Below are positions 37,914 to 57,497 of a stretch of DNA of 64,000 bases, piece by piece. Source of the DNA: Escherichia phage UPEC03; the sequence record MW250785; one strand, written 5' to 3'. The notes under the pieces were generated by a model that was not told the origin of the DNA, did no database searches, and worked only from the letters and a program-made list of their open reading frames with translations. Position 1 is the first letter of the stretch; every line of letters begins with the position of its first letter. The position numbers and the translations under genes were made by a program.

Positions 37914-39337
37914 TCTTTCATACGATTGAATGTGTTCCGTCAAGTGGTAAAACAAAGGCGATTCTGAACCATATCAATCAAACGGGCGAAAAAGCAATCA
38001 TCGCTTCGATTTCCATGATGTTATCAAAACAGTCTTATGACTACTACATCAACCAGGTAAAAGGGAAACGAGCGGTGATTGTGGACACGGATCACCGAAC
38101 CAAAAGAACCAATAATGATGCGCTGCGTGAGGTTGTCAAAGATTATGATGTGATCTTTATCACTCATGCAGCACTCAAAAACATTGATGACTTTGATTTG
38201 TATAAGGATTTTTCTCTGTACATTGACGAAGTTCCTGATTTGGTTGCGTTCGAAAGTCTGCGATTTAATAGCAATATCAAGCACATACGCGAGATTTGCT
38301 TGCCGTTTAGTTGCAATGCCGATGATATCGTTGATTTAAAACTTGACGAAGAAAAACGAGAACTGGTTACACGATTAGCCTATGATGGGCTTCGTAAACG
38401 TGATGATATCGCAATGAAGATGTTCCCGCTTTACCGTGCTCTGTTAGGGGCTATTCCGGTGAAGATGCAATGTAGCGATTCGGGATATGTCTGTTACTTC
38501 GTAGAGGATCATGACGTAAGCCAGTGGAAGTTCAAAAATGTAACCATTGCTTCATCCAACATCAAAGATACGATTACAGGGAAGATCCTACAAACGTTTC
38601 ATGATGTGGAGTTCAAAGATTCACCGCTTCAAACGCTGGTTGACTTTAAGCAATATAAAAACACGAAGCGCATTAAAATACATGTGCTCGCAGAGGGGGA
38701 TTATTCGCGTTATACGGGTGATCTCTCTCAATCTGGGACGACAGTATACACCCAGATTAAAAAACGCGTGGAGGCGCTTTTAGGGGGCGAACAGTTCATC
38801 TATTGCACCAACACGTATCGATCGAAGTTTAGCGAGGGGCAGGAAATCCCGTATAACTCGCACGGATTGAACTTCTATTCGAGCTATACTAACGTGGTAG
38901 CATTATTCAGTTACAACCCGTTACCCTGGCTTCGTCAAATGTTGCGAGCGGTTGCGGTGTCCTCTGGACTCGAAGAGGAAGAATTAGTTGATGCTTATGT
39001 TGTCAGTAAATATTACGAACCAGCCTTTCAGTTATGCGCTCGTTCTGATATCCGACACAACAACAGCAAAAGAAAGATTAATTTATTTGTGCCTGATATG
39101 CGGTTAGCGAAATACATGAAGGAAAAATATTTTCCCGATGCCATTATCGAAACCACAGAAGCAGTTCAAACGAAAAGGCAACGCAAATCATTTCAAACCC
39201 TTTTCCAAATGACGGACAAAGAGAAAAACGCTTTTACGCCATACAAGAAAAGAAACAAATTAGATTATGCGAATCCTCTTCATCACGCGATTGTTAAAGA
39301 TTGGCTGAACAATTACCGTGAGAAAAAGGCGACTTGA
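37910..39337 (+). CDS. P-loop NTPase-like protein (Walker A PSSGKT, Walker B LYIDEV), function unknown
   Basis: 475 aa; N-terminal VPSSGKTKAIL and ~100 aa later FSLYIDEVPD; immediately upstream of gene 34. Confidence 0.5.
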   Translation: MIFHTIECVPSSGKTKAILNHINQTGEKAIIASISMMLSKQSYDYYINQVKGKRAVIVDTDHRTKRTNNDALREVVKDYDVIFITHAALKNIDDFDLYKDFSLYIDEVPDLVAFESLRFNSNIKHIREICLPFSCNADDIVDLKLDEEKRELVTRLAYDGLRKRDDIAMKMFPLYRALLGAIPVKMQCSDSGYVCYFVEDHDVSQWKFKNVTIASSNIKDTITGKILQTFHDVEFKDSPLQTLVDFKQYKNTKRIKIHVLAEGDYSRYTGDLSQSGTTVYTQIKKRVEALLGGEQFIYCTNTYRSKFSEGQEIPYNSHGLNFYSSYTNVVALFSYNPLPWLRQMLRAVAVSSGLEEEELVDAYVVSKYYEPAFQLCARSDIRHNNSKRKINLFVPDMRLAKYMKEKYFPDAIIETTEAVQTKRQRKSFQTLFQMTDKEKNAFTPYKKRNKLDYANPLHHAIVKDWLNNYREKKAT

Positions 39338-39352
39338 TGGTCGCCTTTTTTG
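39327..39352 (+). terminator. Intrinsic terminator before gene 34 late promoter
   Basis: aggcgac…gtcgcct hairpin + TTTTTT. Confidence 0.75.
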
Positions 39353-39354
39353 TT

Positions 39355-39362
39355 TATAAATA
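39355..39362 (+). promoter_or_regulatory. T4-type late promoter TATAAATA (gene 34)
   Basis: Exact TATAAATA after terminator, ~32 nt upstream of gene 34. Confidence 0.65.
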
Positions 39363-39393: not shown

Positions 39394-42300
39394 ATGGTAG
39401 CTAAATCATTCCGCGCCACAAGTGGCCTTGATGCTGCTGGCGAAAAAGTTATCAACGTTGGTAAAGCATCACGCTCTGTGTTGAGCGACGGCGTGAACGT
39501 TGACTTTTTTAACGAATTTAACACGATCCAACAATACGATTCTACCCGTGGTTATGCTGCGTTTATGGCTATCATGTACGCGCGTCGTATTTGGTACGCT
39601 CGCGCAGATATTCCATCACCAGCGGGTGCTTTCGATGAAACAAAATGGATCTCAACCCGTAACGATCCAAAATGGGTATATAACAACGTAACGAGCAATG
39701 ACGGTCTCCCTGTTGAATCCGGTACGTACTTAATGGCTGACGGTCGTTTCTCTGAATTGACCTATATTCTGCCAGATGCCCCTGTTGAGGGTGATATTAT
39801 CACTATTAAAGATGGTGGCGGTCTTGCAGGGATCAACAACCTGTTAGTGCGTTCAAACACTCGTCAGATCCGTTTACGTGATATTCAGTCAAGCTCTTAT
39901 CGACTGACTCACCCATATATGACCGTTGCGTTTATTTTTAACGGCAACTTATGGCGTGTTGCTGAAATGCGTGATAACCGTGATTCGCAGTTTGTTAATG
40001 CGACTGGTTTAACCGCTTTCCAAATGCAAGCGGGTATGGTAACATTCCGTAACAGTGGAACGGGTAAAATTACGTTGCAGTTGCCTCGCTACGCAAACGA
40101 TGGTGACTCAATCACAACTTACGATCTGGATCGCCTTGCTTCGGTGAACGTTGCGACTCTGCAAGTTTATCCTGGTAGCGGACACACGATCAGTTATGAC
40201 GGTATCAATAACGTACCCTCTGTGACTTCACAGCGTTCCGGTTATGGTATTTTCATGTTCGATCAGGCTAATAACCGTTGGGTTGTTTATGACGGTGATC
40301 AGCGCGTTCGTCTGCGTCGTATCAGTGATGACCTGAACATGTTGCCGAACGATTACGTGTTCATTACTCCTGTTGCTGGTAGTCCTCCAACTGTGCGTAA
40401 CGTTACGCTGACTCTTCCGCAAGATGTTGCCGAAGGTGATCGCGTGTATATCAGTATGTACATGATGGGGAAAACGCAGAACTGCACGATCAAAGTTAAA
40501 GATGGTTCCGGTGAAAAGATCCGCACCAACAAAAACATGATGCAGTTCCCACAGCGTAAGGATTATCCGCCTAATGATTGGTTCAGTGTTGACACTCTGA
40601 CTTTCAATGCCGATACTGACTATCTTCCATACATGGAATTGTCGTATCTGAAAGCTACGAAAGAATGGGTAGTTGCACAGTATCGCCCGATCATTGAACG
40701 TGTCGATCCAACAAACCGTTCTCGTCTGGGTGTGATTGCGCTGGCTACACAGGCAGAAGTAAACAAGAACCATGAAGATACGCCGTCTGATGAACTGGCA
40801 GTAACCCCGCGTACACTGGCGAATAAAACCGCTACTGAAACGCGTCGTGGTATCGCTCGCCTGGCAACAACTGCGGAAGTTAACCAGAACACGACAGCAA
40901 CCTTCCTTGATGACGTGATCGTGACGCCTAAAAAGCTGAACGAACGATCAGCAACAGAAGATCGTCGTGGGGTGCTGGAAATCGCAACTCAGGCAGAAAC
41001 AAACGCTGGTACTGATGACACTACCGCAATCACGCCTAAGAAGCTCGACACACGCCGCGCGACCGAAACCCTAGCAGGTATCGGAAAACTCGTTACAACG
41101 GGCGCTACGACAGCGGAGGGGGCTTTACGTGGGGATGCTGGTACTAACGTCTACAACTTCAATAACGGTGTTGATCTGATCACTCCGAAATCATTGAACG
41201 AGAAGACGGCGACCGAAAAGTCAAAAGGTCTGGTTGTTCTGGCGACTGAAAACGAAGTGGTAACTGGTGCTGCTGCGGGATCTGCTTCAATGCCGATCGT
41301 AGTAACTCCTGAAATGCTGCATCGTAAAACGTCTACTGAAACGCGTATCGGATTGATTGAGATCGCAACCCAGACAGAAACAAACACGGGAACTGACGAT
41401 CTCCGTGCTGTAACGCCTAAGAAGCTGAACGATCGTAAAGCGACTGAATCACTTGATGGTATTATTGCCCTCGCTACCACTGCGGAAGTTGCAGCAGGTA
41501 CGGTAACGAATAAGGCGGTTGTTCCGGTTAAGCTGAAAGAGTTCTTCGACGTTACAAGTCATGTTGCGGTTGCTACCGATGACGGTTTAACTCAGTCCGG
41601 CACTATCTGGACAACGATTAACCTGGGGATTGCGTCTGCTACTGAAACACAGCGCGGTACTTTACGTGTTGCGACTCAGGGTGAAACTGATGCGGGTCTT
41701 CTGGATACCGTGTTCATTACGCCTAAGAAACTGCAAGCGAAGAAAGCGACGGATACCGCCGAAGGTATTATTCGTTGTGCGACTAACGCGGAAGCGGGTG
41801 CGGGTACTGCTACTAACCTGGCAATTACTCCGGCTACCATGCAGTTCTTGAACGGTACTGATCCGGCGTGGGGTGCGACGACAACTCGACGCGGTGCGGT
41901 GTTTATCACTACCCAATCAAACACTTTCATCGGTGATAATCTGGTTGGTTCTACTCAGGCCGTTGACGATTATCTCGAAGATTTCTATGCTGTATCGCCT
42001 CGCGGTCTGAACTTTGCTCTGCAAAACTTCTTACCGAAAATGGCAACGGCACAGAATAGTTTGAGTCTGGGCGGTGTGGTTGCTGCAAGCTGGATGCGTC
42101 GTGATGCAAACCAGACGGTAACTGGAAATAACACGTTTAACGGTACAAGCAACTTCGTTGGTAACGTAACCACTAACGGAACACTGACGGCTAACGCTGC
42201 GGTAACGGTTAACAACACCGTAACCACGAACAATAACATTAACCAGTCTGCGAAAGCAAACACTGTTTATGCAAATACTGTTCTGAGTGGTGAGGCTGCG

Positions 42301-43053
42301 GGAACCAAAAACTTGCTTCGTACCTTCCGTGGTGGTGTGGCGGATACGATCTGGCATGAAACTGTTCAGGCAAGCACGTATCGCCTGGCGACGGGTACAA
42401 CGGATCTGGTTGACGTTCTGACAGTAGGTGATGTCGGTAACGGCACAATGGCGTATTCCGGTACGAACATTCGTCTGAATGGTAAAGCTCTGGCTAACAT
42501 CAACACGGCGGGTGATTTGTTTGTTGCAAGTACAGCAACGCCTACGGTACAATTACGAACCGCTGCAACTAATGGTTGGAACGGTGTAACAATCAGTAAT
42601 GACGGCGGCACAACCACTGCAACCGTGATCAACACCCGAAACTTTACCCAGCATCTTGACAGTACCTATGTCAACGTAGCGGGTGATACTATGACTGGTG
42701 CGCTGTCAGTTAGCGTAAACGGTACGGGTGGACGCTTTACCAGTGTGAGCGGTACGGCACATGTTCAGGCGGGTGATTTCTCTGGGAACGTCCAGAAAAT
42801 GCGCTTAACTGGCATTGACGATAAGGTATTGACTGAGTTCAACATCAATATCACCGATTACAACAAAGCGATGATCAACGGAAACCTGATCTATCATGCA
42901 GGTCGTAAACCGACTCCGGCAGAAATCGGGGCGGTGGCGGTAGCGGGTTCAACCGTCGATACTCTGGTTGTACGTAACTATATCAAAATCGGTAACGTGA
43001 AAATCTTCGCAAACCCAGCAACTAAGACTTGTGAATTTGTGTGGGAGGAATAA
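39394..43053 (+). CDS. 34: Long tail fiber proximal subunit gp34
   Basis: 1219 aa; repeated …ATETRRGIARLATTAEVNQNTT…RRGVLEIATQAETNAGTDDTTAITPKKL… blocks and C-terminal IGAVA…NYIKIGNVKI…FVWEE match T4 gp34; TATAAATA upstream. Confidence 0.93.
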   Translation: MVAKSFRATSGLDAAGEKVINVGKASRSVLSDGVNVDFFNEFNTIQQYDSTRGYAAFMAIMYARRIWYARADIPSPAGAFDETKWISTRNDPKWVYNNVTSNDGLPVESGTYLMADGRFSELTYILPDAPVEGDIITIKDGGGLAGINNLLVRSNTRQIRLRDIQSSSYRLTHPYMTVAFIFNGNLWRVAEMRDNRDSQFVNATGLTAFQMQAGMVTFRNSGTGKITLQLPRYANDGDSITTYDLDRLASVNVATLQVYPGSGHTISYDGINNVPSVTSQRSGYGIFMFDQANNRWVVYDGDQRVRLRRISDDLNMLPNDYVFITPVAGSPPTVRNVTLTLPQDVAEGDRVYISMYMMGKTQNCTIKVKDGSGEKIRTNKNMMQFPQRKDYPPNDWFSVDTLTFNADTDYLPYMELSYLKATKEWVVAQYRPIIERVDPTNRSRLGVIALATQAEVNKNHEDTPSDELAVTPRTLANKTATETRRGIARLATTAEVNQNTTATFLDDVIVTPKKLNERSATEDRRGVLEIATQAETNAGTDDTTAITPKKLDTRRATETLAGIGKLVTTGATTAEGALRGDAGTNVYNFNNGVDLITPKSLNEKTATEKSKGLVVLATENEVVTGAAAGSASMPIVVTPEMLHRKTSTETRIGLIEIATQTETNTGTDDLRAVTPKKLNDRKATESLDGIIALATTAEVAAGTVTNKAVVPVKLKEFFDVTSHVAVATDDGLTQSGTIWTTINLGIASATETQRGTLRVATQGETDAGLLDTVFITPKKLQAKKATDTAEGIIRCATNAEAGAGTATNLAITPATMQFLNGTDPAWGATTTRRGAVFITTQSNTFIGDNLVGSTQAVDDYLEDFYAVSPRGLNFALQNFLPKMATAQNSLSLGGVVAASWMRRDANQTVTGNNTFNGTSNFVGNVTTNGTLTANAAVTVNNTVTTNNNINQSAKANTVYANTVLSGEAAGTKNLLRTFRGGVADTIWHETVQASTYRLATGTTDLVDVLTVGDVGNGTMAYSGTNIRLNGKALANINTAGDLFVASTATPTVQLRTAATNGWNGVTISNDGGTTTATVINTRNFTQHLDSTYVNVAGDTMTGALSVSVNGTGGRFTSVSGTAHVQAGDFSGNVQKMRLTGIDDKVLTEFNINITDYNKAMINGNLIYHAGRKPTPAEIGAVAVAGSTVDTLVVRNYIKIGNVKIFANPATKTCEFVWEE

Positions 43054-43058
43054 TTTAA

Positions 43059-44654
43059 ATGGCGAATAACGAATTTATGGCGTTATTCGGCCCTGATAGT
43101 TTCACGGCGAGTGTGTTTTCAGAAGCAAACGCCGTGAAATATCGCCTTGTTGTCCGTGGAACGAATAACGATTCTGCGGTCAACTCGGTTGAGGTATCTA
43201 TCAATGGGGCTGATATTATTAACCGAAACGTACAGCGCGGTCGAGGGATTAACCTTGCTGTAATTGACGGTACGAGTTTGGCTTTGCTGGATTTCAAAAC
43301 TTTTGATATGTATGGTGATCCTACTACGAATGGGACTGCGATTAGTGATTACCTATCTACACTTCCAGCAAACAGAATTGTATGTTTCTATACGTTCGAT
43401 GCTATAAAATCTACCGATGCGTTTTTGAGTTATATGCGCACAATCGGATCAGTTGCATGGCCTGAAACACGATTCTTTAACACGCCGTCATCATCAACAA
43501 ACAACCCGCACCGTTCATCCTATTCAGCAATCTATTCATCCACGATGAAAAAGATCTGTATGGAAAACTTCGTAGGTGGTTCTGGTACTGGACTCAAAGA
43601 CAACACGACGAGTTTTGTTGAGGTTGTATTCGATGAATTCAGTGATATCGGGGTAACTGGTATTCCTGAAAGAATGGTTGATGATGTTCAGGTATATCAG
43701 AACAGTGGCAGTGCTTACGGCTTCCATTTATATGGGATGTGGGATATTGGTTCTACTGTTTTCTTGGGGGACATCTTTAAGTTCACTGGTGATGTTTATT
43801 GCTCGCAAGAACTTCGCAATGCTGGCGGCGAATGTTATCTCTATATGTGGACACAGAACGCCTCTGGTCAATGGATATCCTCTGCGGTACTGCGAACAAC
43901 TGGGTTAGCTCCTGATGAATGGCATTCTCTGTCAGGATATTTCACTATCCCTACGGACGCGCTAAACGTGAAGATGGGATGTATGGTATATCACTACCCG
44001 TCTACCGTGAAAGTGGGGCTTGCTCAGTGTCGCAATGTCCAGATCAGTAAAGTTCCACGAATCGAAACCGATCGCAACGGGGCGGCAATTGGTGTAAATG
44101 GTATCAGGATGCAAACGCTTTCCGAAGTTGATGATGCTGGAACCCAAAACCCGATTGATAAATTGCTTTCTCTGCCTGTTTCGCCTACTGGGGTTATTAG
44201 TGACAAGAAAATCAGTTCGCATAACTTTGCTGAACTTGATTATATTGTTTCTGATCCGGTTGAATACACTTCGACAAATACAGCGGAGTACCAGTTCAAA
44301 GAATGGACTGCTACCCAGCAAGCGGCGGTAACGAAAGCATCACTAAGCAGTTACGGATTAAAAGCTGGTGATACGATCCGTATGCAATGCCAAATGAAAC
44401 GCGATGCAAATGCGATTGCTAACAATAAAGGCGCATATATTGTAATGCAGTTCTGGGACGCGAATAATACGTATATTTCAGGGATCAACATGCGTGATGT
44501 TGGTACGATCCCGAACGTATATTCATTCTACAAAAACGAAGGGGTTATTCCTGCTGGTGCGGTTACGTTTGATTTCGGTTTATATCGTTATCCAAACAAC
44601 ACAAACATCGGTACGATATCCGCTAAAGACGTTAATTTGTCAATCGTGAGATAA
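43059..44654 (+). CDS. 35: Long tail fiber hinge connector gp35 (enlarged, GG/ILEI-like N-terminal domain)
   Basis: Position between 34 and 36; N-terminal GINLAVIDGTSLALLDFKTFDMYGD pattern resembles the FAM3/ILEI 'GG' fold reported for gp35 proteins; 531 aa vs ~372 in T4. Confidence 0.65.
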   Translation: MANNEFMALFGPDSFTASVFSEANAVKYRLVVRGTNNDSAVNSVEVSINGADIINRNVQRGRGINLAVIDGTSLALLDFKTFDMYGDPTTNGTAISDYLSTLPANRIVCFYTFDAIKSTDAFLSYMRTIGSVAWPETRFFNTPSSSTNNPHRSSYSAIYSSTMKKICMENFVGGSGTGLKDNTTSFVEVVFDEFSDIGVTGIPERMVDDVQVYQNSGSAYGFHLYGMWDIGSTVFLGDIFKFTGDVYCSQELRNAGGECYLYMWTQNASGQWISSAVLRTTGLAPDEWHSLSGYFTIPTDALNVKMGCMVYHYPSTVKVGLAQCRNVQISKVPRIETDRNGAAIGVNGIRMQTLSEVDDAGTQNPIDKLLSLPVSPTGVISDKKISSHNFAELDYIVSDPVEYTSTNTAEYQFKEWTATQQAAVTKASLSSYGLKAGDTIRMQCQMKRDANAIANNKGAYIVMQFWDANNTYISGINMRDVGTIPNVYSFYKNEGVIPAGAVTFDFGLYRYPNNTNIGTISAKDVNLSIVR

Positions 44655-44675
44655 AGGGGCGAAAGCCCCTTTTTC
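44655..44675 (+). terminator. Intrinsic terminator after gene 35
   Basis: aggggc-gaaa-gcccct + TTTT. Confidence 0.7.
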
Positions 44676-44705
44676 ATAAATACAGTCATTACAGGAGAAA
44701 TTTTT

Positions 44706-44894
44706 ATGGCTGATTTGAAATTAGGTACAACGCTGGGTGGTGCGGGTATCTGGAGTGCTTCTAACCTTCCTCTATTGCCCTCTGGTGGACAATTAACGTA
44801 TAAAGGCTGGAGAGTATACACAGAAAATGATCGTCCAACAGCGGAGGATATAGACGCACTATCGACGATTAACGGCGGTACTGTTGCGGTATAA
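44706..44894 (+). CDS. 36: Distal long tail fibre protein (gp36/37 family), N-terminal fragment truncated by frameshift
   Basis: MADLKLGTTLGG…IWSASNLPLLPSG N-terminus parallels the downstream fibre gene and T4 gp36; terminates inside a 91-bp tandem duplication. Confidence 0.7.
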   Translation: MADLKLGTTLGGAGIWSASNLPLLPSGGQLTYKGWRVYTENDRPTAEDIDALSTINGGTVAV

Positions 44895-44979
44895 AGGCTG
44901 GAGAGTATACACAGAAAATGATCGTCCAACAGCGGAGGATATAGACGCACTATCGACGATTAACGGCGGTACTGTTGCG
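44798..44979 (+). repeat. Perfect tandem duplication, 2 x 91 bp
   Basis: Bases 44798-44888 and 44889-44979 read identically (gtataaaggctggagagtataca…ggtactgttgcg); 91 is not a multiple of 3. Confidence 0.9.
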
Positions 44980-47028
44980 AAGAATACTACATTCAATCAG
45001 AATTTGGTTGTGGGTGCTTCATTAACTGCTAACTTGATTCAATCGAATAGTGTTCTTACCATCCAACGTAGCGCAAACCCTGCGGAAATGATTTTCTATC
45101 GTCCCGATATTACGGCAACCCCGTCATCTGAAGCATGGGTTTTAAACATGTATGCGAAAGATGGTTTGAATCGAGGCATGGGTTCGTTGATTATTTCTGC
45201 TCGTACTGACGGTGGAAATAAAGTATATCTGCGGGCGAATAAAGACGGTTCCCCTAATACAAGTTTAACGCTGGATTCGCAAACCCAACAGGTAACAGTT
45301 GAGCAAGGATCTTTTCGCGTAATCGGTACTACGAATCTTGGTGTGACGAACGCCGCATCAATGGCGGTTAGCGGTGCGGTAACTGCGAATACAGTAACCC
45401 CGACAAACTGGGCTAACCATGATGAACGATATATGACGGGCATTCCTCGCGGTATGTCTGGAACAAGTTTCGGTGCTGCTGTTGTAACTGAAAAGAACGA
45501 TGTTCTGTCGGTAGGCGGTAACATCACCGACGGCCCATATGGTAACACTACGTATTACGGGCAGGTTGTCAACTATCGCCGTACATTGAATAGTGGGGTT
45601 TCATTAGTTCAAACATACTTCGGGAACGAAATGTGGTTTCGTCTTGGATCAGGTTCTCCGGGTGCGTGGTCATGGAACCAGGGCGATGCTAATGGTTGGC
45701 GGCGTGTTTATGATACGGTCAGTCCACCAACTCCGGCAGAAGTGGGGGCAGTAAACAAAGCTGGTGATACAATGACTGGTGGTTTAGCGTTACTTGGGGA
45801 TTTGACCTTTCGAAATTTGGTAAATCGTCATATTCGTTTCGAATACACCAAAAACGACGGTTCTACCGCTGTTGACGCTTACATCTATAAAGATGGTGTA
45901 GATAGCTCTACTCGCCGTGCTGGACTTCGCATTAACTGTGCCACACCGAACAAAGCGAGCGGGAATACTTTAAACTCAGGTGATTTTGTATTCGGGGAGA
46001 ATGGTAACTTCACACTGCCTGGCGGTGGTATGATTATTCAGGACGGCCTTAACTCTGGTGTTTATTGTATTTCTGCATTGAGTACATTATCAACAGGAAC
46101 GAAGAATTACCTTCGTCGTTTCCGTGGTGGTTCTGGTGATGTGATTTTTCATGAAACCGTACAAAGTAATACATGGCGTATAGCGTCGGGTGGTTCTGAT
46201 TCACAAGATGAAATGGTTCTTTCTACTGCTGGTTCTGGTTGGGTTCGATATCGTGGAGAGGTTGTTTCGCAATCAGCTAACGGGTTGCGGATTGCGTATA
46301 ACAATAAAGGATTCTTTATCCGAAATGACTCAAACACCACATATTTCTTGTTGACTAATGATAATGATCCCTATGGCTCGTACAACAGTCTTCGCCCTTT
46401 GTATATCAACAATGATACTGGTTCTGTAACGTTAGGTCATGCTGTTGGAATAGGCGGAAACCTCAGCGTCAACGGTACATTTACCACAGCAAACAGCAGT
46501 TTGAGCAATGGTCAATTAGTATTAAACGGTTCAGGCGATTCGCAAGTTTATTTTTCACGAAGTGGTGCTAACCCTCGCGATATGAGAATTTTCCATTCTG
46601 GTGATGCTTCTCGCGGGAACCGTGTTGAAATTGCTGATTCTACATCATATCTGGTTTATTTTGAGCGTCATCCGTCAAGTGGCATTCAGTTGTCCATGAA
46701 CGGTAACGGTATCTTTAACGATGTGTATATTCGTTCTGATGAAAGACTGAAAAGTAATTTCAGTAAGATTGAAAATGCATTGGATAAAGTTGATTTGCTT
46801 GATGGTATGGTGTACGACAAAGCAAACCATATCGGGGGTGAAGAAACTACCCGCGAGGCTGGTTTAGTCGCACAACAACTGCAAGAAGTATTACCGGAAG
46901 CCGTTAAGAAAGGTGTTGATGGTGAACAGAACGAGATCTTAACTGTTTCGTCTTCTGCTGTTATTGCGTTGCTGGTTAACGCGATTAAAGAACTCCGTGA
47001 GGAAGTCAGGGAACTTAAATCCCGCTAA
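44884..47028 (+). CDS. 36: Distal long tail fibre protein (gp36/37 family), main body, with C-terminal intramolecular chaperone (S74-type) domain
   Basis: Re-encodes YKGWRVYTENDRPTAEDIDALSTINGGTVA from the second repeat copy; conserved NYLRRFRGGSGDVIFHETVQ block; C-terminal DVYIRSDERLKSNF…LVNAIKELREEV self-cleaving chaperone signature. Confidence 0.8.
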   Translation: MRYKGWRVYTENDRPTAEDIDALSTINGGTVAKNTTFNQNLVVGASLTANLIQSNSVLTIQRSANPAEMIFYRPDITATPSSEAWVLNMYAKDGLNRGMGSLIISARTDGGNKVYLRANKDGSPNTSLTLDSQTQQVTVEQGSFRVIGTTNLGVTNAASMAVSGAVTANTVTPTNWANHDERYMTGIPRGMSGTSFGAAVVTEKNDVLSVGGNITDGPYGNTTYYGQVVNYRRTLNSGVSLVQTYFGNEMWFRLGSGSPGAWSWNQGDANGWRRVYDTVSPPTPAEVGAVNKAGDTMTGGLALLGDLTFRNLVNRHIRFEYTKNDGSTAVDAYIYKDGVDSSTRRAGLRINCATPNKASGNTLNSGDFVFGENGNFTLPGGGMIIQDGLNSGVYCISALSTLSTGTKNYLRRFRGGSGDVIFHETVQSNTWRIASGGSDSQDEMVLSTAGSGWVRYRGEVVSQSANGLRIAYNNKGFFIRNDSNTTYFLLTNDNDPYGSYNSLRPLYINNDTGSVTLGHAVGIGGNLSVNGTFTTANSSLSNGQLVLNGSGDSQVYFSRSGANPRDMRIFHSGDASRGNRVEIADSTSYLVYFERHPSSGIQLSMNGNGIFNDVYIRSDERLKSNFSKIENALDKVDLLDGMVYDKANHIGGEETTREAGLVAQQLQEVLPEAVKKGVDGEQNEILTVSSSAVIALLVNAIKELREEVRELKSR

Positions 47029-47031
47029 TTA

Positions 47032-47056
47032 AAAGCCCTTCGGGGCTTTTTCTTTT
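47032..47056 (+). terminator. Intrinsic terminator after gene 36
   Basis: aaagccc-ttcg-gggcttt + T-run. Confidence 0.75.
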
Positions 47057-47064
47057 TATAAATA
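47057..47064 (+). promoter_or_regulatory. T4-type late promoter TATAAATA (gene 37)
   Basis: Exact TATAAATA after terminator, upstream of gene 37. Confidence 0.65.
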
Positions 47065-47090
47065 TCATAAAAGCATTTGAGGATCTAATA

Positions 47091-49304
47091 ATGGCAGATT
47101 TAAAAGCGGGTACTACCGTTGGCGGTAATACTATCTGGAGTCAGGCAAATTTACCTGTTCTTCCTTCTGGAAATACTTTAACATACAAAGGCTTTAAGGT
47201 ATATACCGAAAACGACAAACCAACAAAAGCCGAAATCGGGTTAGGCAACGTAACGAACGACGCACAGGTGAAGAAAGCTGGCGATGATATGACCGGATCT
47301 CTGAACATCACAGGGGCGAATAGTCAATTAACTGTTCCTTATCGCCTGTTGATGCAACGTGCGGTTGCTGGAGATCCATACGTCCTGTTTGTTCGTCCAG
47401 ACAACAACCCAATTACTAACGGATATCCTTCTACAACGCTTCGTGTAATGACTATCACTGCCCGTGCTGCGACAACTACTGATCCGGTTTCTGGCGCTCA
47501 ACTGGCAAACATTTTGTCAGATCAGACAGCACAGGGTAACGGGTCATTAACTCTGCAAGCGTTTGCAGCCCCGAACACATCTACGGGCGCAAGCGGTGCG
47601 CGTACAGCGGAAGTCTATTTGAACGGTAACGGACAGTTATCAATGATAGGTTCCGGTTTAACGATCGGGATGCAGACTGTTGTAAACGGTACGATTTTCG
47701 GTACACAAATGGCTATTAAAGGCGATTCGAACCGAAACCTGTTCTTCCAGGATGCTGGCGATAATGAATTGAGTTTGATTTATGCGGATACCGGAAAGAA
47801 CTTATATGTTCGTACTGGTGGCGGCGCATATGCTACTCGTTTCGCTTCTGATGGAACTTTAGTATTAGCAAATCATCTAACCGTTCCTGGTATTGCTACT
47901 TTTAACGGTCAAGCAGTGATGAATAGCCGTTTGTCTGTGTCTACTGATTTTGACTCTCAGGGAGTCAATAGTGCGGTTATTCGTGTTGACACAAGCGGCG
48001 ACGGAAACGCGGTTGGTGATGGTGTAACCCATTTAGGATATAAAGACGGCAACGGAAGATTCAACCATTATTTCCGTGGTACTGGATCGTTATTTGTTAA
48101 CACCAAACTTGGTATGAACATCAACGTACCATCTTATTATAACGATGTACCACAAACCACTCCAGCACAATATTTCTTGTCTACGGGTACGCAAGGCGCG
48201 AAAAATTATTTGCGTCAGTTCCGAGGCGGCAACGCGGATACGATCTGGCATGAAACTGTTCAGGGTGGCTTATATCGTTTAGCGTCTGGTAGCACTGATG
48301 CGCAAGAAGAATTCATGGTTTCTACTGCTGGCTATATCAGATCTCGCGTAGAAGTACAAAGTGCTTCGTGTGGTTCTGGCGGTCAGTTCCGCGCGGTTCA
48401 GGGTAACTTCGGCGTGATGCACCGAAATGATGGTGGTAACTATTACTTCCTGATTACTAACTCTGGCGATCCGTGGGGAACGTGGAACGGATTACGCCCA
48501 TTCACCATTGGTTTGACCACGGGTATTGTATCGATGTCCAGCGGTGTTAATATCTCCGGTGGTTTCAACATCAACGGTGCTGCTGAATTTAACAACGGTC
48601 TGGGTTGTGGTACTGCAAACGGATTGGGCGCAAACGCAATATCTCTGGGTGATACCGATACAGGTTTTGTTCAAGAAGGTGATGGTATTCTCAACGCCTA
48701 CGCGAACAGCCAACGAATTCAACGTTGGACAACAGGGGCTAGTGCAGTTTATAAGCAATTGCAGGTTCAAGGCGTTAACGGGCCAGCATTACTTCTGAAC
48801 AACACCGCAAGCAACCAGTCTGTATACATGCTTTTGCAATATGCAGGTACAAACGCTGGTTATCTGGGCTTTGGTGGTTCTGATAACACCATGACAATGC
48901 ACAACTACCAGTTGAATACAAACTTACAGTTGCGCGTAAGTGACATATATGTAAACCGTGCATTGTATGGTGAAAGCACAGGCAACTTTACTGATGTGTA
49001 TATTCGTTCAGATCGCCGTCTAAAATCGAACCTGGTTGAGATTAAAGATGCTCTGGTTAAAGTAGAACAGCTTACAGGCTATGTATACGATAAACAATCA
49101 AAAGATGCGGACGAAATTGTATACCATCGCGAATCTGGTCTGATTGCACAAGATGTTCAGGAAGTATTACCTGATGCAGTAAAAGAAGATAGTAACTCCG
49201 GTATGCTTACGATTTCACCTGCGGGTGTTAACGCGCTTCTGGTGAATGCAATCAACGAACTGCGCGAACGTCTGGAAGCAATTGAAAACAAATTAGGGGC
49301 TTAA
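47091..49304 (+). CDS. 37: Distal long tail fibre protein gp37 with C-terminal intramolecular chaperone domain
   Basis: 737 aa; N-terminus MADLKAGTTVGG; NYLRQFRGGNADTIWHETVQ block; T4 gp37-like GDGVTHLGYKDGNGRFNHYFRGTG; C-terminal DVYIRSDRRLKSN…LVNAINELRERL; TATAAATA upstream. Confidence 0.9.
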   Translation: MADLKAGTTVGGNTIWSQANLPVLPSGNTLTYKGFKVYTENDKPTKAEIGLGNVTNDAQVKKAGDDMTGSLNITGANSQLTVPYRLLMQRAVAGDPYVLFVRPDNNPITNGYPSTTLRVMTITARAATTTDPVSGAQLANILSDQTAQGNGSLTLQAFAAPNTSTGASGARTAEVYLNGNGQLSMIGSGLTIGMQTVVNGTIFGTQMAIKGDSNRNLFFQDAGDNELSLIYADTGKNLYVRTGGGAYATRFASDGTLVLANHLTVPGIATFNGQAVMNSRLSVSTDFDSQGVNSAVIRVDTSGDGNAVGDGVTHLGYKDGNGRFNHYFRGTGSLFVNTKLGMNINVPSYYNDVPQTTPAQYFLSTGTQGAKNYLRQFRGGNADTIWHETVQGGLYRLASGSTDAQEEFMVSTAGYIRSRVEVQSASCGSGGQFRAVQGNFGVMHRNDGGNYYFLITNSGDPWGTWNGLRPFTIGLTTGIVSMSSGVNISGGFNINGAAEFNNGLGCGTANGLGANAISLGDTDTGFVQEGDGILNAYANSQRIQRWTTGASAVYKQLQVQGVNGPALLLNNTASNQSVYMLLQYAGTNAGYLGFGGSDNTMTMHNYQLNTNLQLRVSDIYVNRALYGESTGNFTDVYIRSDRRLKSNLVEIKDALVKVEQLTGYVYDKQSKDADEIVYHRESGLIAQDVQEVLPDAVKEDSNSGMLTISPAGVNALLVNAINELRERLEAIENKLGA

Positions 49305-49329
49305 TGCCCCTCTTTAAGAGGAATATTTT

Positions 49330-50142
49330 ATGGCTGTTGTAGGCGTACCTGGTTGGATCGGGTCTTCTGCTGTAAGCGAAACGGGTCAAAGATGGATGTC
49401 CGCTGCTGCGGGACAACTTCGATTATCTGCTGCGGGTTATATGTCACGATTTGCGGGGATCTCCCGTGAACAATCAATAACAATTTCCGCGAGTAACGCA
49501 TACGCATGGTCAACCCTGGTCAACCAGATTAAATCATTGGGTGTATCCGGTGGTGCATTCAAAATTACTGTTGTCGGGAACATCGTTTCAAACAGTGCTG
49601 GCGCTCCGTGCCTTAACTTCACATCCGATCTTGCTGGTGTCGATTATATCGAACTGATCATTAACTCCGGTGTAGGTGTTATGGGTCGTGGTGGTGCGGG
49701 TGGTGGTGATAACACAGGTGGCCCGTATTCGTCCGGTGAAAATGGTGGTGTCGGTATTACTAACGCGATCGGAAACAAACTGCGAATAACGAACAATGGT
49801 TATATTGCGGGTGGTGGTGGTGGTGGTGGCCTGGTAAACATGCCAACTTCTACATCACGACGTGTACAGGTATCCGGTGGTGGTGGTCGACCTTTCGGTG
49901 CTGCTGGTACAGGTGGTTATGACGGTAACGGTACAGCGGCAACAATTTCCGCTCCTGGTTCCGGTGGTTCTTCGAGTCTATCACAAGCTGGTGCGGGTGG
50001 TAACTTAGGTGCGGCTGGTCAATATCCACCTAAAGCCGATGGTCGTCTGGAAGCTCAAGCGGCGGGTGCTGCGGGTGCTGCGGTTAACGGTAACGCGCCA
50101 ACGTGGAGAACTGTAGGGACAATTTACGGTTCGAGAGTTTAA
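49330..50142 (+). CDS. 38: Tail fibre adhesin gp38 (T2-type, glycine-rich motifs)
   Basis: MAVVGVPGWIGSSAVSETGQRWMS N-terminus, poly-Gly islands (GGGGGGG, GGGGRPFGAAG), C-terminal WRTVGTIYGSRV as recalled for T2/T6 gp38. Confidence 0.85.
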   Translation: MAVVGVPGWIGSSAVSETGQRWMSAAAGQLRLSAAGYMSRFAGISREQSITISASNAYAWSTLVNQIKSLGVSGGAFKITVVGNIVSNSAGAPCLNFTSDLAGVDYIELIINSGVGVMGRGGAGGGDNTGGPYSSGENGGVGITNAIGNKLRITNNGYIAGGGGGGGLVNMPTSTSRRVQVSGGGGRPFGAAGTGGYDGNGTAATISAPGSGGSSSLSQAGAGGNLGAAGQYPPKADGRLEAQAAGAAGAAVNGNAPTWRTVGTIYGSRV

Positions 50143-50195
50143 GTAAATTCCTAAATATAATCGGGGGTCGGCATCCCCGAACTTGAGGATTAAAC

Positions 50196-50840
50196 ATGGC
50201 GCTATTACAAGATAAATTGGCGGTGCTTGAACGGGTAATATCGTTCATCATGGCGGTCAAAACATGGAAACAGTTATTCATTAAATTGGTTCTTATCGTC
50301 ACTATTTTCATTATGTTCGTAACATGGTACAAGTGGGATGACTTATTTTCAGTCTGGAAAACATCTTCAATCGTTATAGACGTGCCGACGATGGAGATTG
50401 AAAAGGCAAAAAAGTTTGAATCCGCATCCATCGAACAGTTAAACATAGTGCATTTAACTACGGATGCGGATTTTTCGGCAATCTTTGGTTTCAGACCTAA
50501 GAATGTCAATTATTTTGTTGATATAATTGCGTATGAAGGGAAGTTACCGCAACAGATTAACCCGAAAAATCTGGGTGGCTATCCTATAGACAAGACATCG
50601 GAAGAGTATAATAGACATATAAACGGGCTGTACTATATCTCAGATATTGCAAGCCCGTATCTTCCAACAAAAGACCTTGTTCCGGTAGCATATACCTTTA
50701 GTTGTCCTTATTTCAATCTCGAAAACTACTATTCTGGATCGATTCTAATGGAATGGTATATACAGAAGCCCGAAGTCACCGATACGAAGTTGATGATCGT
50801 GTGCAATCAGGCCGCTAGAATTTTAGGCAGGGTTCGATGA
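50196..50840 (+). CDS. t: Holin T
   Basis: 214 aa; N-terminal TM segment; FRPKNVNYFVDIIAYEGKLP, CPYFNLENYYSGSILMEWY, CNQAARILGR match T4 holin t. Confidence 0.93.
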   Translation: MALLQDKLAVLERVISFIMAVKTWKQLFIKLVLIVTIFIMFVTWYKWDDLFSVWKTSSIVIDVPTMEIEKAKKFESASIEQLNIVHLTTDADFSAIFGFRPKNVNYFVDIIAYEGKLPQQINPKNLGGYPIDKTSEEYNRHINGLYYISDIASPYLPTKDLVPVAYTFSCPYFNLENYYSGSILMEWYIQKPEVTDTKLMIVCNQAARILGRVR

Positions 50841-51098
50841 TAATTTCAGTTTCAAACCGCTTAAAGCCCGATCGATGAAATCTTTTACTTTCGTCATCGG
50901 GCTTTTGTCGTATATGTCCCATACGCGCATGAGTTCGTAAGGTGTCGGAACATATTCATCGTTCCAGTATCCAACATTACCTATCGTAACGCGTCGGAAA
51001 CCAGCCTCTACGCTGTGATATACAAAGAACCCAGCCTTACCCACAGGGGAGACTTTAAAACCGCGTGTAGCGGCTTTCATGGCTTCGTCGTGTGTCAT
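50823..51098 (-). CDS. Small protein, candidate DUF2829/Tad2-like
   Basis: 91 aa; N-terminal MTHDEAMKAATRGFKV… and …MRVWDIYD resemble the (F/M)xEAL..LK.GKKV … DWEIV pattern recalled for DUF2829. Confidence 0.3.
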   Translation of the reverse strand: MTHDEAMKAATRGFKVSPVGKAGFFVYHSVEAGFRRVTIGNVGYWNDEYVPTPYELMRVWDIYDKSPMTKVKDFIDRALSGLKLKLSSNPA

Positions 51099-51397
51099 GA
51101 TAGAATCACTTCGCCTCTGTATTGATTGTGATAGATGTATGGACGAACACCCAGTGGGTGATTATCTATGACTAAGATCAGGTCAAGTTCGTCGTGGTTA
51201 TCATCTTCTGCAACTATATCCCAGTCGGTCGCTTTCTGTTCTTCAACACTGGCAATGAATACCTGGTTAATCTCAACCTTACGGTGAGAACGGCGAATGA
51301 TCGTATCCCCTTCGCGGAACACGATCATATCTGGGTTAATCGGGCGGTACGCGGTTTTACCCGCGCACACTTCATTAAGCATTTCTTCGTATGTCAT
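51095..51397 (-). CDS. Small protein, candidate DUF2829/Tad2-like (paralog)
   Basis: 100 aa; MTYEEMLNEVCAGKTAYRP… and …ATDWDIVAED fit the same pattern. Confidence 0.3.
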   Translation of the reverse strand: MTYEEMLNEVCAGKTAYRPINPDMIVFREGDTIIRRSHRKVEINQVFIASVEEQKATDWDIVAEDDNHDELDLILVIDNHPLGVRPYIYHNQYRGEVILS

Positions 51398-52194
51398 TAT
51401 AATACCTTTACTCGCTGAACGATTGTTTGTTTAACTTCTTTGTATTCGTTGTGAAGTTTAGGTGTCGCTTTGAAGCGAATCACATCACCCTCTTCAACAA
51501 TTTTGTTTCCGTAGTAGATAACCACGTTACCATCTACGTTGATTTTGGTCATGAAACGTTCCACTTCGGTGTAATAAGAAACTTGGGTATATCCGAGAGA
51601 AATCACTTTCTCAACAACCCCGCTCATTTCCATACGCTTACCGATTTCCCCGATGTGCTGTGCTGCTGCGATCTTCGCCTGGCGCTCTGCTTCCCATTCT
51701 GCGCGGATCTCTTCACGTTTAGCGATGTAATCCTTCTCCAGCGCTACGCCCATGCAGTAAGAGCAAATAGCCTGAAATACTGGGCTATCGTTGCCGTTTT
51801 CTTTGCACTGATCAGCCCACCACAGAATCGTATACATCGGCATATCAGCAATCACTTCACCTTTACGCTTACCGATTGGCATGATGCCCTGTTCCAGCAG
51901 TTCCAGGTTTTCGGTATCCTGTACAGACAGTTTGCCGCGACGTTCAAACAGATCGAAATCTGCGAATCCCTGGAACACCATCTGGAAAGTGTCGGTCTGG
52001 TTCAGACGATCCACCATGCGATCGAAGTATTCACGCGCTTTCGCTTCTGCTTTATCTGGGTCGGTAGACAGGTTGCAGATATAGTTATCAGAAGTGAATC
52101 CACCTCCACGACGCTCTACACGCAGGGTGTACATAGCGTTTTTAGCGCCAGAAGAAATGAAGTATGTCGCGGTAACTTTAGTCAGGTTAGTCAT
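51397..52194 (-). CDS. Hypothetical protein (266 aa)
   Basis: Start at ATG (MTNLTKV) with AAGGAG RBS; first gene of a three-gene - strand unit ending with the two DUF2829-like ORFs. Confidence 0.55.
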   Translation of the reverse strand: MTNLTKVTATYFISSGAKNAMYTLRVERRGGGFTSDNYICNLSTDPDKAEAKAREYFDRMVDRLNQTDTFQMVFQGFADFDLFERRGKLSVQDTENLELLEQGIMPIGKRKGEVIADMPMYTILWWADQCKENGNDSPVFQAICSYCMGVALEKDYIAKREEIRAEWEAERQAKIAAAQHIGEIGKRMEMSGVVEKVISLGYTQVSYYTEVERFMTKINVDGNVVIYYGNKIVEEGDVIRFKATPKLHNEYKEVKQTIVQRVKVL

Positions 52195-52270
52195 GGTGAA
52201 TCTCCTTAGTGGTTTCGTTTCGACAAGGCCAATATAGCAAAAGCCCTCAACCGAAGTCAAGGGCTTTTTA

Positions 52271-52911: not shown

Positions 52912-52929
52912 GTTTCGCTACCAGGTTGT

Positions 52930-53160: not shown

Positions 53161-53204
53161 ATATTATTTTCCTTATTGGGGCTTTTCAGCCCCATTTTAG
53201 ATAA

Positions 53205-53459: not shown

Positions 53460-53467
53460 TATCTCAA

Positions 53468-57487: not shown

Positions 57488-57497
57488 TGTTTATATC

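Follow-up and report, generated by a model that had tools for sequence, protein, structure and literature searches.

Long-tail-fibre module of a Pseudotevenvirus with two gp36-37-type genes, probably encoding alternative distal half-fibres

Within the 64,000-nt stretch of Escherichia phage UPEC03 analysed here (record MW250785; the window), a long-tail-fibre locus is encoded entirely on the plus strand in the order gp34, a 531-aa gp35, two distal-subunit genes of about 740 aa (the paralogs p1 and p2), gp38 and holin (Table 1). The same gene order is present in Enterobacter phage vB_EkoM5VN, showing 94% nucleotide identity to the window, as well as in leB and RB16. As judged from sequence, the window belongs to a Pseudotevenvirus (RB43/RB16/leB group), and the region is the normal long-tail-fibre module of a T4-type phage. 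The two-paralog layout is genus-wide (60 of the 60 records listed), and a gp36-type N-terminus occurs at two places in all 60 best records listed. A locus with two distal genes is already known, as RB43 record AY266307 annotated gp36-37.1, gp36-37.2 and gp38 in 2003, while T4-style 36-37-38 naming is used in many records. The genes and domains named in an initial annotation of the window are real, apart from a split "gene 36" and a misplaced sequence block in gp34.

Table 1. Features of the long-tail-fibre module (nucleotide positions of the window; aa, residues of the respective protein).
Feature	Position (nt)	Strand	Size or aa range	Evidence and remarks
Hairpin + T-run (39327-39351), then T4-type late promoter TATAAATA (39355-39362)	39327-39362	+		Upstream of gene 34
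gp34, proximal half-fibre subunit	39394-43053	+	1219 aa	Homology, relatives' annotation
Shared block, copy 1 (gp34), NLLRTFRGGVADTIWHETVQ	42307-42405	+	aa 973-992	With 31-nt exact repeat 42340-42370
gp35, enlarged knee protein	43059-44654	+	531 aa	Pfam ILEI, E 9e-11
gp35 D1			aa 28-195	GG/ILEI lectin-like domain
gp35 D2			aa 205-332	β-sandwich; disordered linker after D2
gp35 D3	44229-44651	+	aa 391-531	Second β-sandwich copy
Hairpin AGGGGC-GAAA-GCCCCT + T-run, then late-promoter-like CATAAATA (44675-44682)	44655-44682	+		Upstream of p1
p1, 5' fragment (RB43 gp36-37.1 type)	44706-44894	+	62 codons	gp36-type N-terminus
Perfect 91-bp tandem duplication (44798-44888 and 44889-44979)	44798-44979	+		TRF: 2.0 copies, 100% identity
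p1, remainder	44884-47028	+	714-aa ORF	First start TTG
Shared block, copy 2 (p1), NYLRRFRGGSGDVIFHETVQ	46102-46200	+
p1 Peptidase_S74	46735-46908	+		Pfam E 6.7e-14; predicted cleavage Ser 46735-46737
Terminator-like hairpin (47031-47050), then late promoter TATAAATA (47057-47064)	47031-47064	+		Between p1 and p2
p2 (RB43 gp36-37.2 type)	47091-49304	+	737 aa	gp36-type N-terminus; T4 gp37-like segment aa 291-345
Shared block, copy 3 (p2), NYLRQFRGGNADTIWHETVQ	48201-48299	+		With 31-nt exact repeat 48234-48264
p2 Peptidase_S74	49008-49184	+		Pfam E 2.6e-14; predicted cleavage Ser = residue 640
gp38, T2/S16-type glycine-rich tip adhesin	49330-50142	+	270 aa	Pfam Gp38_N + GP38 (E 9e-49)
Holin t	50196-50840	+		Pfam Phage_holin_T, E 2.9e-55; marks end of fibre module

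The gp34 protein shares 45% identity with T4 gp34 (972 aa) and 99% with its vB_EkoM5VN homologue. As had been noticed initially, gp35 is about 160 aa longer than the T4 protein (531 versus 372 aa, +159 aa). T4 gp35 is covered completely by an alignment with residues 4-356, and its residues 218-296 are matched a second time by residues 422-504 (31% identity, E 2e-6). In the AlphaFold2 model (pLDDT 78), D2 and D3 have an identical order of strands and helices at an offset of 200 residues; the top Foldseek match of gp35 is the tandem CBM22 structure 4xup, and D1 is structurally similar to the POMGnT1 stem and FAM3 (TM-scores of 0.6-0.73, normalised to the target). Alignment and model together identify the additional stretch of gp35 as a duplicate of its C-terminal β-sandwich domain.

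Both distal paralogs carry a Peptidase_S74 domain, the profile being covered end to end (1-58 of 58), together with Gp34_trimer and gp37_trimer domains in p2 and a Gp34_trimer-like domain in p1 (Pfam). The S-x4-K dyad of this family with Arg at +3 (PMC3742443) is found in the motif IRS-D-x-R-L-K of p1 (Ser647/Lys652) and p2 (Ser640/Lys645), so that domain and Ser/Lys motif bear out the self-cleaving chaperone module previously assigned to both proteins. Over the last approximately ten mature residues (NDVYIRS), p1 and p2 do not differ, and their N-termini are indeed alike (45% identity over 113 aa), with 47 and 52% identity to T4 gp36 residues 1-72 and 1-48, respectively. A T4 gp37-type N-terminus is matched by neither paralog, and the gp36 body domain Phage_T4_gp36 (PF03903) was found by Pfam in neither. 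Overall, p1 and p2 show 33-45% identity and differ in shaft length. Among PDB sequences, p1 matches the Mu fibre 5yvq, T4 gp34 and S16 gp37 (6F45_A), the latter also being matched by the p2 C-terminus, and the p1 tip resembles part of T-even gp37 distal regions.

The gp38 protein is, as proposed, of the T2 type, matching S16 gp38 (PDB 6F45_D, E 1.7e-30) over residues 5-268. Of the two paralogs, only p2 bears the motif LGxxxISLGDTDTG...GDGIL, which is also present in gp37 of RB18, S16 and JC221, and gp38 N-termini are conserved regardless of p2 tip type. Self-cleavage followed by capping with gp38 is the fate of most T-even-like gp37 proteins (PMC9569957), and the gp37 controls from RB18 (T2/K3-type) and S16 carry Peptidase_S74 themselves. 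The idea of a hybrid between T2-like and chaperone strategies hence draws a false contrast: as T2/S16-type gp37 normally possesses S74 plus a gp38 cap, the locus simply uses the T2/S16 strategy.

In the window, p1 is interrupted by the perfect 91-bp tandem duplication, which had been overlooked before. As 91 is not a multiple of 3, the reading frame is shifted, and translation from ATG 44706 would run for 62 codons into a TAA (44892-44894) created by the duplication; the copy-to-copy junction reads GTTGCG followed by GTATAAAGG. Removal of one copy yields a 743-aa protein with 98.8% identity to the vB_EkoM5VN homologue. Accordingly, the size of about 740 aa originally given for "gene 36" is valid for the repaired gene, but not for the split ORF found here. 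The p1 loci read in vB_EkoM5VN, leB, RB16, EcRAM-01, EcL22g and Dev_CS701 are intact. The duplication is missing from vB_EkoM5VN and leB, was found neither in any of the 34 matching phage records nor in IMG/VR, and does not occur in the Logan assembly SRR16019039. Apart from this, that assembly matches the window at 100% identity over 42341-58142 (15.8 kb) and, by its sequence, represents the same phage assembled independently. It breaks exactly at the window's only other exact repeat of at least 25 nt (31 nt), so that a repeat of 91 bp, if present at consensus frequency, would have been expected to break the contig too. Most likely, the duplication arose during assembly or represents a minority variant and stands outside the biology of the phage; repeats of this kind often stem from circular contigs whose overlapping ends were left untrimmed. 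It is doubtful that it represents a genuine mutation of the sequenced stock knocking out p1, perhaps reversibly by recombination between the copies. The duplication is present in the sequence as given, tandem duplications arise and are resolved in T4-type phages, and a p1-null phage would be viable if the fibres are parallel, but its absence from the identical assembly, the 34 related records and IMG/VR speaks against this. If the duplication is real, the isolate lacks a functional p1, which would show p1 to be dispensable rather than used.

Transcription signals precede gene 34, p1 and p2, with the late-promoter motif TATAAATA occurring 8 times in the window versus 2.3 expected by chance. The hairpin and promoter upstream of p1 are conserved in vB_EkoM5VN and leB, and reading of the intergenic sequence between p2 and gp38 revealed no late promoter. 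From gp34 through gp35 to p1, the locus is 96-100% identical to vB_EkoM5VN, while p2 and the gp38 N-terminus are 100% identical to EcL22g, whose p1 shows 58-81% identity over most of the gene and 97% at the extreme 5' end. The switch from vB_EkoM5VN-like to EcL22g-like sequence falls at 47.0-47.1 kb, within the terminator/promoter region between p1 and p2. As read from these signals and identities, p1 and p2 each form a late transcription unit of their own and reassort independently of each other. This intergenic region is the clearest breakpoint, rather than the block NxLRxFRGGxxDxI(W/F)HETVQ in gp34, p1 and p2 that had been suggested as a likely site of exchange. The three copies of the block form a 99-nt repeat family and are near-identical at the protein level, but not at the DNA level, where the p1 and p2 copies show 63 and 72% identity, respectively, to the gp34 copy; gp34 and p2 have one exact 31-nt stretch in common. 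The positions at about 46.1 and 48.2 kb were given correctly, whereas the gp34 copy lies at 42.3 and not 41.3 kb. A breakpoint close to the block was seen in one comparison only (leB and Dev_CS701 versus p1).

Among seven genus members, the N-terminal 60 aa of p1 and p2 are 94-98% conserved, p1 residues 331-630 show 28-61% identity, and no part of the locus varies more than the last approximately 100 mature residues of p1 (28-45% pairwise identity). With a hypervariable p1 tip and an invariant p2 N-terminus, the former is not expected to be the docking surface of the latter. The "YNIWK" tip type is common to RB16 p1, RB16 p2 and leB p1; on this sequence evidence, tip modules occur in either paralog position. 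Other arrangements are found in JC221 (enlarged gp35, one fused distal gene with S74, plus gp38), POP12 (enlarged gp35, one fused distal gene) and three metagenomic relatives likewise with the enlarged gp35, namely L018 (two distal genes, a single 132-aa ORF behind the second), L019 (fibre plus 154-aa ORF, then fibre plus 131-aa ORF) and L020 (S74 fibre, Gp38_N adhesin, then Caudo_TAP chaperone and a second fibre). As the first L020 fibre has its own terminal cap, it cannot be an internal connector. All distal fibre genes in these five begin with MADLKxGTT.

With moderate confidence, we favour the reading that the locus is an RB43-type module in which p1 and p2 are alternative complete gp36-37 distal half-fibres, employed in parallel and providing two specificities. 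The data show which genes and domains are present, their homologies, the transcription signals, the mosaicism and the pattern among relatives; that the proteins are cleaved, dock on gp35, become capped and both enter the virion is our inference. While gp34 would form the proximal half-fibre and gp35 the knee, p1 and p2 would each be a fused gp36-37 subunit, neither a "gp36" nor a "gp37", docking on gp35 via the gp36-type N-terminus, which would be followed by a β-helical shaft and the tip. After trimerisation, the C-terminal intramolecular chaperone would be cut off at the Ser-Lys dyad. Presumably, p2 and gp38 share a transcript and this S16/T2-type adhesin caps the p2 tip, whereas p1, as its own late unit, would contribute a second specificity by its hypervariable distal part. 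Virions would carry both kinds of distal half-fibre in parallel, either on separate fibres or attached to one knee, giving two receptor specificities. According to Trojet et al. (2011, PMC3157838), the size of the RB43 fibre points to a single gp37 trimer in each fibre; neither proteomic data on virions nor images of fibres from a Pseudotevenvirus turned up in our literature search. As the mature ends of p1 and p2 are alike and gp38 N-termini conserved, gp38 might also cap both, which would weaken the two-specificities part. The resemblance of the p1 tip to part of T-even gp37 distal regions likewise counts against the parallel reading.

One form of the parallel arrangement, a branched knee in which gp35 D3 serves as second socket so that each fibre bears both distal half-fibres, is conceivable but unlikely. 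Duplication of the T4 gp35 C-terminal domain in the extra approximately 160 aa would fit, as would the finding that only 65 of 1411 phage records match the enlarged gp35 over its full length and the presence of two distal genes in five of seven sampled lineages with this gp35, while AS-gz, the nearest short-gp35 relative, has one. However, POP12 and JC221 combine an enlarged gp35 with a single distal gene, the modelled D2/D3 fold is CBM-like, so that the extra domain could equally bind glycans, tail or whiskers, and forked fibres go unmentioned in published RB43 descriptions (PMC3157838).

Very improbable is the originally proposed fibre of two chaperone-processed trimers plus tip adhesin in series, i.e., gp35, a p1 trimer in the gp36 role, a p2 trimer and gp38. 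The gene order mirrors T4 36-37-38, many records are annotated in this way, and mature p1 and p2 together (647 + 640 aa, about 1287) come near T4 gp36 plus gp37 (1247 aa), a length that by itself also fits a serial fibre. Nevertheless, the p2 N-terminus is of gp36 and not gp37 type, the hypervariable mature p1 tip would have to meet a 94-98% conserved p2 N-terminus, JC221 and POP12 make do with one protein of this kind for the distal half, the first L020 fibre has its own gp38-type cap and each L019 fibre its own accessory ORF, p1 and p2 have separate promoters and reassort independently, and the RB43 fibre size fits one gp37 trimer. Equally remote is one functional paralog per virion, mixed heterotrimers or p1 as a dispensable or decaying spare, although p1 is frameshifted in the window and Trojet et al. 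(2011, PMC3157838), calling the function unclear, raised heterotrimers or expression of one paralog as options: heterotrimers are unlikely given 33-45% identity and different shaft lengths, p1 is under selection, being intact in the relatives whose loci were read, with a gp36-type N-terminus at two places in all 60 listed records and with catalytic dyad and conserved N-terminus kept, it has its own late-promoter-like motif, and the frameshift is missing from the independent assembly of the same phage.

Compared with known systems, the locus agrees in layout with RB43 and RB16 of the same genus (AY266307; PMC3157838), sharing gp34, a 531-533-aa gp35, two tandem gp36-type/S74 genes of about 715-820 aa, gp38 and holin at 70-100% nucleotide identity over conserved parts, but differing from both in the tip modules of the two paralogs. 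In contrast to the 172-174-aa gp38 with Gp38_N only of RB43, RB16, leB and vB_EkoM5VN, the window encodes the 270-aa glycine-rich S16/T2-type also found in the Enterobacter phages EcRAM-01, EC-F1/F2, EC-W2 and EcL22g. The T2/T6/S16 tip (PDB 6F45; PMC9569957) is resembled by p2, with S74, Ser/Lys dyad and match to 6F45_A, and by gp38, corresponding to 6F45_D over its full length. In T2/S16, however, a separate 221-aa gp36 links gp35 to gp37, whereas in the window the gp36 N-terminus is fused onto a gp37-like protein and a second protein of this gp36-37 type is added. With T4, the locus has in common a 45% identical gp34, a gp35 core of 26% identity with the same ILEI domain, the N-terminal 50-70 aa of gp36 and the motif NYLRKVRAKSGGTIYHEIV at gp37 residue 219; T4 differs by its 372-aa gp35 with a single β-sandwich, a separate 221-aa gp36 with PF03903, a gp37 with Collar/needle tip lacking S74 and a gp38 that is an unrelated assembly chaperone. 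Two consecutive distal-fibre genes are likewise present in Aeh1 (Trojet et al., 2011, PMC3157838) and L018-L020, in Aeh1, L019 and L020 each with its own small accessory ORF, but these accessories are Tfa/Caudo_TAP-like chaperones or a short Gp38_N protein, while p1 of the window has an intramolecular chaperone only. Finally, the full S74 domain with conserved Ser, Lys (+5) and Arg (+3) is shared with the chaperones of endosialidase and the T5 L-shaped fibre (PMC3742443), whereas in the window it is borne on T4-type long-tail-fibre shafts, twice in one locus.

The tail-fibre locus at 39394-50142 consists of five genes, all in one orientation, and is followed by the holin gene t. By megablast, the region is assigned to the genus Pseudotevenvirus, with Enterobacter phage vB_EkoM5VN (94% identity, 93% covered) being the best match, followed by phages of about 178 kb infecting Enterobacter, Cronobacter, Citrobacter and Klebsiella. 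Over the 10.7 kb of the locus, the top records show 88-95% identity across 75-94% of its length, and its flanks are 96-100% identical to genus members. From ORFs and Pfam matches, the gene order gp34, enlarged gp35, two fused gp36-37 genes (p1 and p2, corresponding to gp36-37.1 and gp36-37.2 of phage RB43), gp38 and holin t can be deduced, and the feature tables of vB_EkoM5VN, leB, RB16, EcRAM-01 and Dev_CS701 show the same order and sizes. Likewise, two gp36-type N-termini were found in all of the 60 best-matching records. The RB43 GenBank record of 2003 (AY266307) already lists "gp 36-37.1", "gp 36-37.2, organized in a similar manner" and gp38, and the duplication of g37 in RB43 and Aeh1 was later noted, with its function called unclear and the size of the RB43 fibre fitting a single gp37 trimer (Trojet et al. 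2011, PMC3157838). For RB43, this architecture was described in 2003-2011, and the locus is ordinary for the genus.

Genes of the tail-fibre locus and the adjoining holin gene in the window
Gene	Position (nt)	Product
gp34	39394-43053	1219 aa
gp35	43059-44654	531 aa
p1, first distal-subunit gene	ATG at 44706, end 47028	
p2, second distal-subunit gene	47091-49304	737 aa
gp38	49330-50142	270 aa
holin t	50196-50840	

None of the fibre proteins of the locus matched an NCBIfam model, and gp34 did not match any Pfam family. Residues 943-1165 of gp34 fail to align with T4 gp34, the C-terminal trimerisation domain of which (PF21446) is detected in both distal paralogs instead. Within gene 34, several families of internal direct repeats (40816-41770, units of 37-65 nt) lie at distances divisible by three (108 to 609 nt, among them several of 381 and 306 nt) and encode the shaft motif ...TPKKL...ATE...GI..LAT..E.... 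Directly upstream of gene 34 lies a conserved 475-aa ORF (37910-39337) without Pfam or NCBIfam match, and several relatives, among them Yersinia phage JC221 and the metagenomic contigs L018-L020, have a gene of 474-475 aa at this place as well.

The initial annotation had described two distal genes of about 740 aa, which is correct for p2, whereas p1 is frameshifted in the window. A perfect 91-bp tandem duplication (44798-44979) is located within the 5' end of p1 and, since 91 is not divisible by three, the frame opened by the ATG reads 62 codons and then runs into a TAA. The rest of p1 forms a 714-aa ORF for which TTG is the earliest possible start. After removal of one copy, a 743-aa p1 is obtained that shares 98.8% identity with its vB_EkoM5VN counterpart. 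Neither vB_EkoM5VN nor leB has the duplication, and its copy-to-copy junction (ACTGTTGCG running into GTATAAAGG) was present in none of the 34 phage records matching the region and gave no match in IMG/VR. Exact-protein look-ups of gp38 and gp35 led to two Logan assembly contigs from run SRR16019039, with the same look-up of the p2 protein giving no match. Apart from the duplication, these contigs are 100% identical to the window at 42341-48263 and 48235-58142, and they have the 91 bp only once, with p1 uninterrupted at 743 aa. Both terminate inside a 31-nt exact repeat (copies at 42340 and 48234), so that a 91-bp repeat at consensus frequency would have broken the contig as well. Hence, the duplication is probably an assembly artefact, possibly an untrimmed assembly overlap, or else a minority variant, and the break in p1 is probably an artefact of the sequence, as an independently assembled sequence of the same phage has the gene whole. 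Annotation pipelines would call p1 broken owing to these 91 bp, although it probably is not.

Both distal proteins start with a gp36-type head. The N-terminus of T4 gp36 is matched by p1 at 47% identity over 72 aa and by p2 at 52% over 48 aa (residues 1-48 in both proteins). This homology is limited to the first 50-70 residues or so, and the gp36 body domain PF03903 was detected by Pfam in neither p1 nor p2 (T4 gp36 control, 9.6e-53). A gp37-type N-terminus was likewise found in neither, and the sole T4 gp37 match of p2 is internal (p2 291-345 versus T4 355-408). Accordingly, p1 and p2 are gp36-37 fusions. Outside Pseudotevenvirus, a second match to a gp36-type N-terminus is seen in about 300 records of Jiaodavirus, Schizotequatrovirus and some Slopekvirus (for example, PQ537382.1 and ON190024.1). 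The Jiaodavirus fibre locus is classical, with the second match elsewhere in the genome, and the Vibrio phage locus differs too much to be compared.

As had been proposed from sequence motifs, both paralogs end in an intramolecular chaperone, with Pfam reporting Peptidase_S74 at E 6.7e-14 for p1 and 2.6e-14 for p2, besides a Gp34_trimer-like segment in each. Endosialidase-type chaperones of this kind employ a Ser-Lys catalytic dyad and also need an oxyanion-stabilising arginine (PMC3742443). In both p1 and p2, the motif IRS-D-x-R-L-K provides a serine and, five residues on, a lysine matching this dyad (Ser647/Lys652 in p1, Ser640/Lys645 in p2), and the arginine at +3 fits the oxyanion-stabilising residue. 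Cleavage is predicted to leave 647 (p1) and 640 (p2) mature residues and to release 96-97 residues. In a comparison of seven genus members, conservation is 94-98% over the N-terminal 60 residues of both paralogs and 80-83% over the chaperone domains, falling to 28-61% for p1 residues 331-630 and to 28-45% for the last 100 or so mature residues of p1. Judged by its conservation, the p1 end has the pattern of a putative receptor-binding tip. One tip type (...LIRG...YNIWKxT...MDxH...) is common to RB16 p1, RB16 p2 and leB p1 (L005, the RB16 locus, 6791-11460; L002, the leB locus, 7813-10092), indicating that tip modules move between the two gene positions; the tips of p1 and p2 in the window are of other types.

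The two distal genes also differ in their closest relatives. The stretch from gp34 through gp35 to p1 is 96-100% identical to vB_EkoM5VN, and p2 together with the N-terminus of gp38 is 100% identical to EcL22g, the p1 of which reaches only 58-81% along most of its length. The switch falls in the intergenic region at 47.0-47.1 kb, and the phage is a new mosaic member of the genus, combining a vB_EkoM5VN-like p1 cassette with an EcL22g-like p2 and S16-type gp38 cassette. A hairpin with T-run and a late-promoter motif lie upstream of each paralog (CATAAATA at 44675 and TATAAATA at 47057), and no such signals were found between p2 and gp38. In the C-terminal half of gp38 (49700-50142), identity to EcL22g falls from 100% to 78-86% and that to EcRAM-01 stays at 92-94%, marking a further mosaic breakpoint inside the glycine-rich specificity domain.

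The block NxLRxFRGGxxDxI(W/F)HETVQ had been suggested as a likely site of homologous exchange. Its three copies in gp34, p1 and p2 are real and constitute a 99-nt repeat family (42307, 46102 and 48201), the gp34 copy being 1 kb away from the 41.3 kb initially assigned to it. As main recombination breakpoint, however, the block was dismissed, since the clearest switch in sliding-window comparison is the intergenic one and breaks near the p1 copy appear only in the comparisons with leB and Dev_CS701. The same motif is found in T4 gp37 (residue 219), which makes the block an old conserved fibre motif. The gp34 and p2 copies share a 31-nt exact repeat (42340-42370 and 48234-48264), the only exact repeat of at least 25 nt in the 64-kb window besides the 91-bp duplication. 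As the surrounding block is just 72% identical between the two genes, gene conversion or a strong constraint at codon level may be involved.

With 531 aa versus 372 aa in T4, gp35 is 159 aa longer, in agreement with the initial estimate. Its residues 4-356 align to the whole of T4 gp35, and T4 gp35 218-296 is matched once more by residues 422-504 (31%, E 2e-6). In an AlphaFold2 model (31 homologues, pLDDT 78), a GG/ILEI domain (28-195) precedes two β-sandwiches (205-332 and 391-531), which are connected through a disordered linker and agree in the order of their secondary-structure elements. Pfam detects ILEI in both this gp35 and T4 gp35, FAM3C is among its PDB sequence matches, and the best Foldseek match of the model is a tandem CBM22 pair, with the first domain matching the POMGnT1 stem and FAM3 proteins. 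Second alignment, model and fold match together identify the enlargement as a duplicated C-terminal CBM-like domain. The extra copy corresponds to nt 44229-44651, and the knee protein is made wholly of carbohydrate-binding-type folds.

Full-length matches (at least 80% coverage) to this gp35 were obtained in 65 of 1411 phage records with a gp35 match. In more distant phages that also have the enlarged gp35, one or two fused distal genes are present, all starting with MADLKxGTT in the five genomes compared. Yersinia phage JC221 has a single gene of 816 aa with S74 and, in addition, a T2-type gp38, and Pectobacterium phage POP12 a single 800-aa gene. Among metagenomic relatives, L018 (9625-14112) encodes two fibres with a single 132-aa ORF after the second, L019 (9636-14509) a fibre with a 154-aa ORF and then a fibre with a 131-aa ORF, and L020 (9637-14731) a fibre with S74, a Gp38_N adhesin, a Caudo_TAP-like chaperone and a second fibre, so that a gp38-type cap follows the first fibre. 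Tip devices in these three contigs vary between S74 with a short Gp38_N adhesin, Caudo_TAP-like chaperones and a shared ...PGTWMxCGR... C-terminus. Aeromonas phage AS-gz, of the relatives examined the nearest with a short gp35, has one fused distal gene of 1152 aa. A rule by which the duplicated gp35 domain always goes with two distal genes was rejected, as POP12 and JC221 have one, and the looser correlation holds for five of seven lineages.

In the T4 fibre, the gp36-type end faces the knee. On comparative evidence, p1 and p2 would rather probably represent two alternative, complete distal half-fibres, which is favoured by the gp36-type heads on both, the hypervariable first tip, the independent cassettes, the presence of one or two cassettes in relatives and the gp38-type cap that one of them has on its first cassette. 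It seems unlikely, by comparison, that every long tail fibre is forked, with the duplicated CBM-like domain of gp35 as second socket. One knee would then hold two different distal half-fibres simultaneously, one self-matured and the other gp38-capped, giving a T4-type phage with two receptor specificities per fibre. The extra domain may be such a socket, a glycan-binding module or something else. The initially proposed arrangement of two trimers in series, with p1 between knee and p2, is not supported. The head of p2 is gp36-type, where a T4-type second subunit would have a gp37-type N-terminus, the p1 tip is unlike a surface obliged to hold an invariant p2 head, and the first fibre of L020, with a terminal cap to itself, cannot serve as an internal connector. 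The initial annotation is thus largely right as to the parts, with the missed duplication and the position of the gp34 block corrected, and wrong in how the parts fit together.

The locus bears on the role of the duplicated gene 37 in RB43-like phages, a question left by the 2011 literature. Searches of the literature on RB43-like phages yielded nothing usable on virion proteomics or fibre imaging. Pseudotevenvirus phages serve as components of phage cocktails for Enterobacter, Klebsiella and Cronobacter. If p1 and p2 are alternative half-fibres, host-range prediction and engineering must weigh the tips of p1 and p2 together with gp38, and gp38 alone would not suffice.

The T2-type assignment of gp38 is borne out by Pfam (Gp38_N, E 8.8e-18; GP38, E 9.4e-49) and by an end-to-end alignment with the S16 adhesin (PDB 6F45_D, E 1.7e-30). 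The gene starts 26 nt downstream of p2, and gene order and co-transcription point to gp38 capping p2. Only p2 contains LGxxAISLGDTDTG...GDGIL, common to the gp37 of RB18, S16 and JC221; p1 lacks it. The final mature residues NDVYIRS are the same in p1 and p2, gp38 N-termini are conserved irrespective of the p2 tip type, and gp38 may cap p1 as well. The fibre is not a hybrid of T2-like and chaperone-domain strategies, as initially suggested, since control scans detected Peptidase_S74 also at the C-terminus of gp37 from RB18 (T2/K3-type) and S16 (T4 gp37 is without it), and gp37 of most T-even-like phages has a self-cleaving chaperone and afterwards receives gp38 as a cap (PMC9569957). The p2-gp38 pair is therefore an ordinary T2/S16 arrangement, sharing with that tip system the S74 domain with Ser-Lys dyad and the adjoining gp38 with Gp38_N and glycine-rich domain. 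Similarly, gp35 has the lectin-like domain followed by a β-sandwich known from GG/ILEI-domain knee proteins, but with the β-sandwich present twice.
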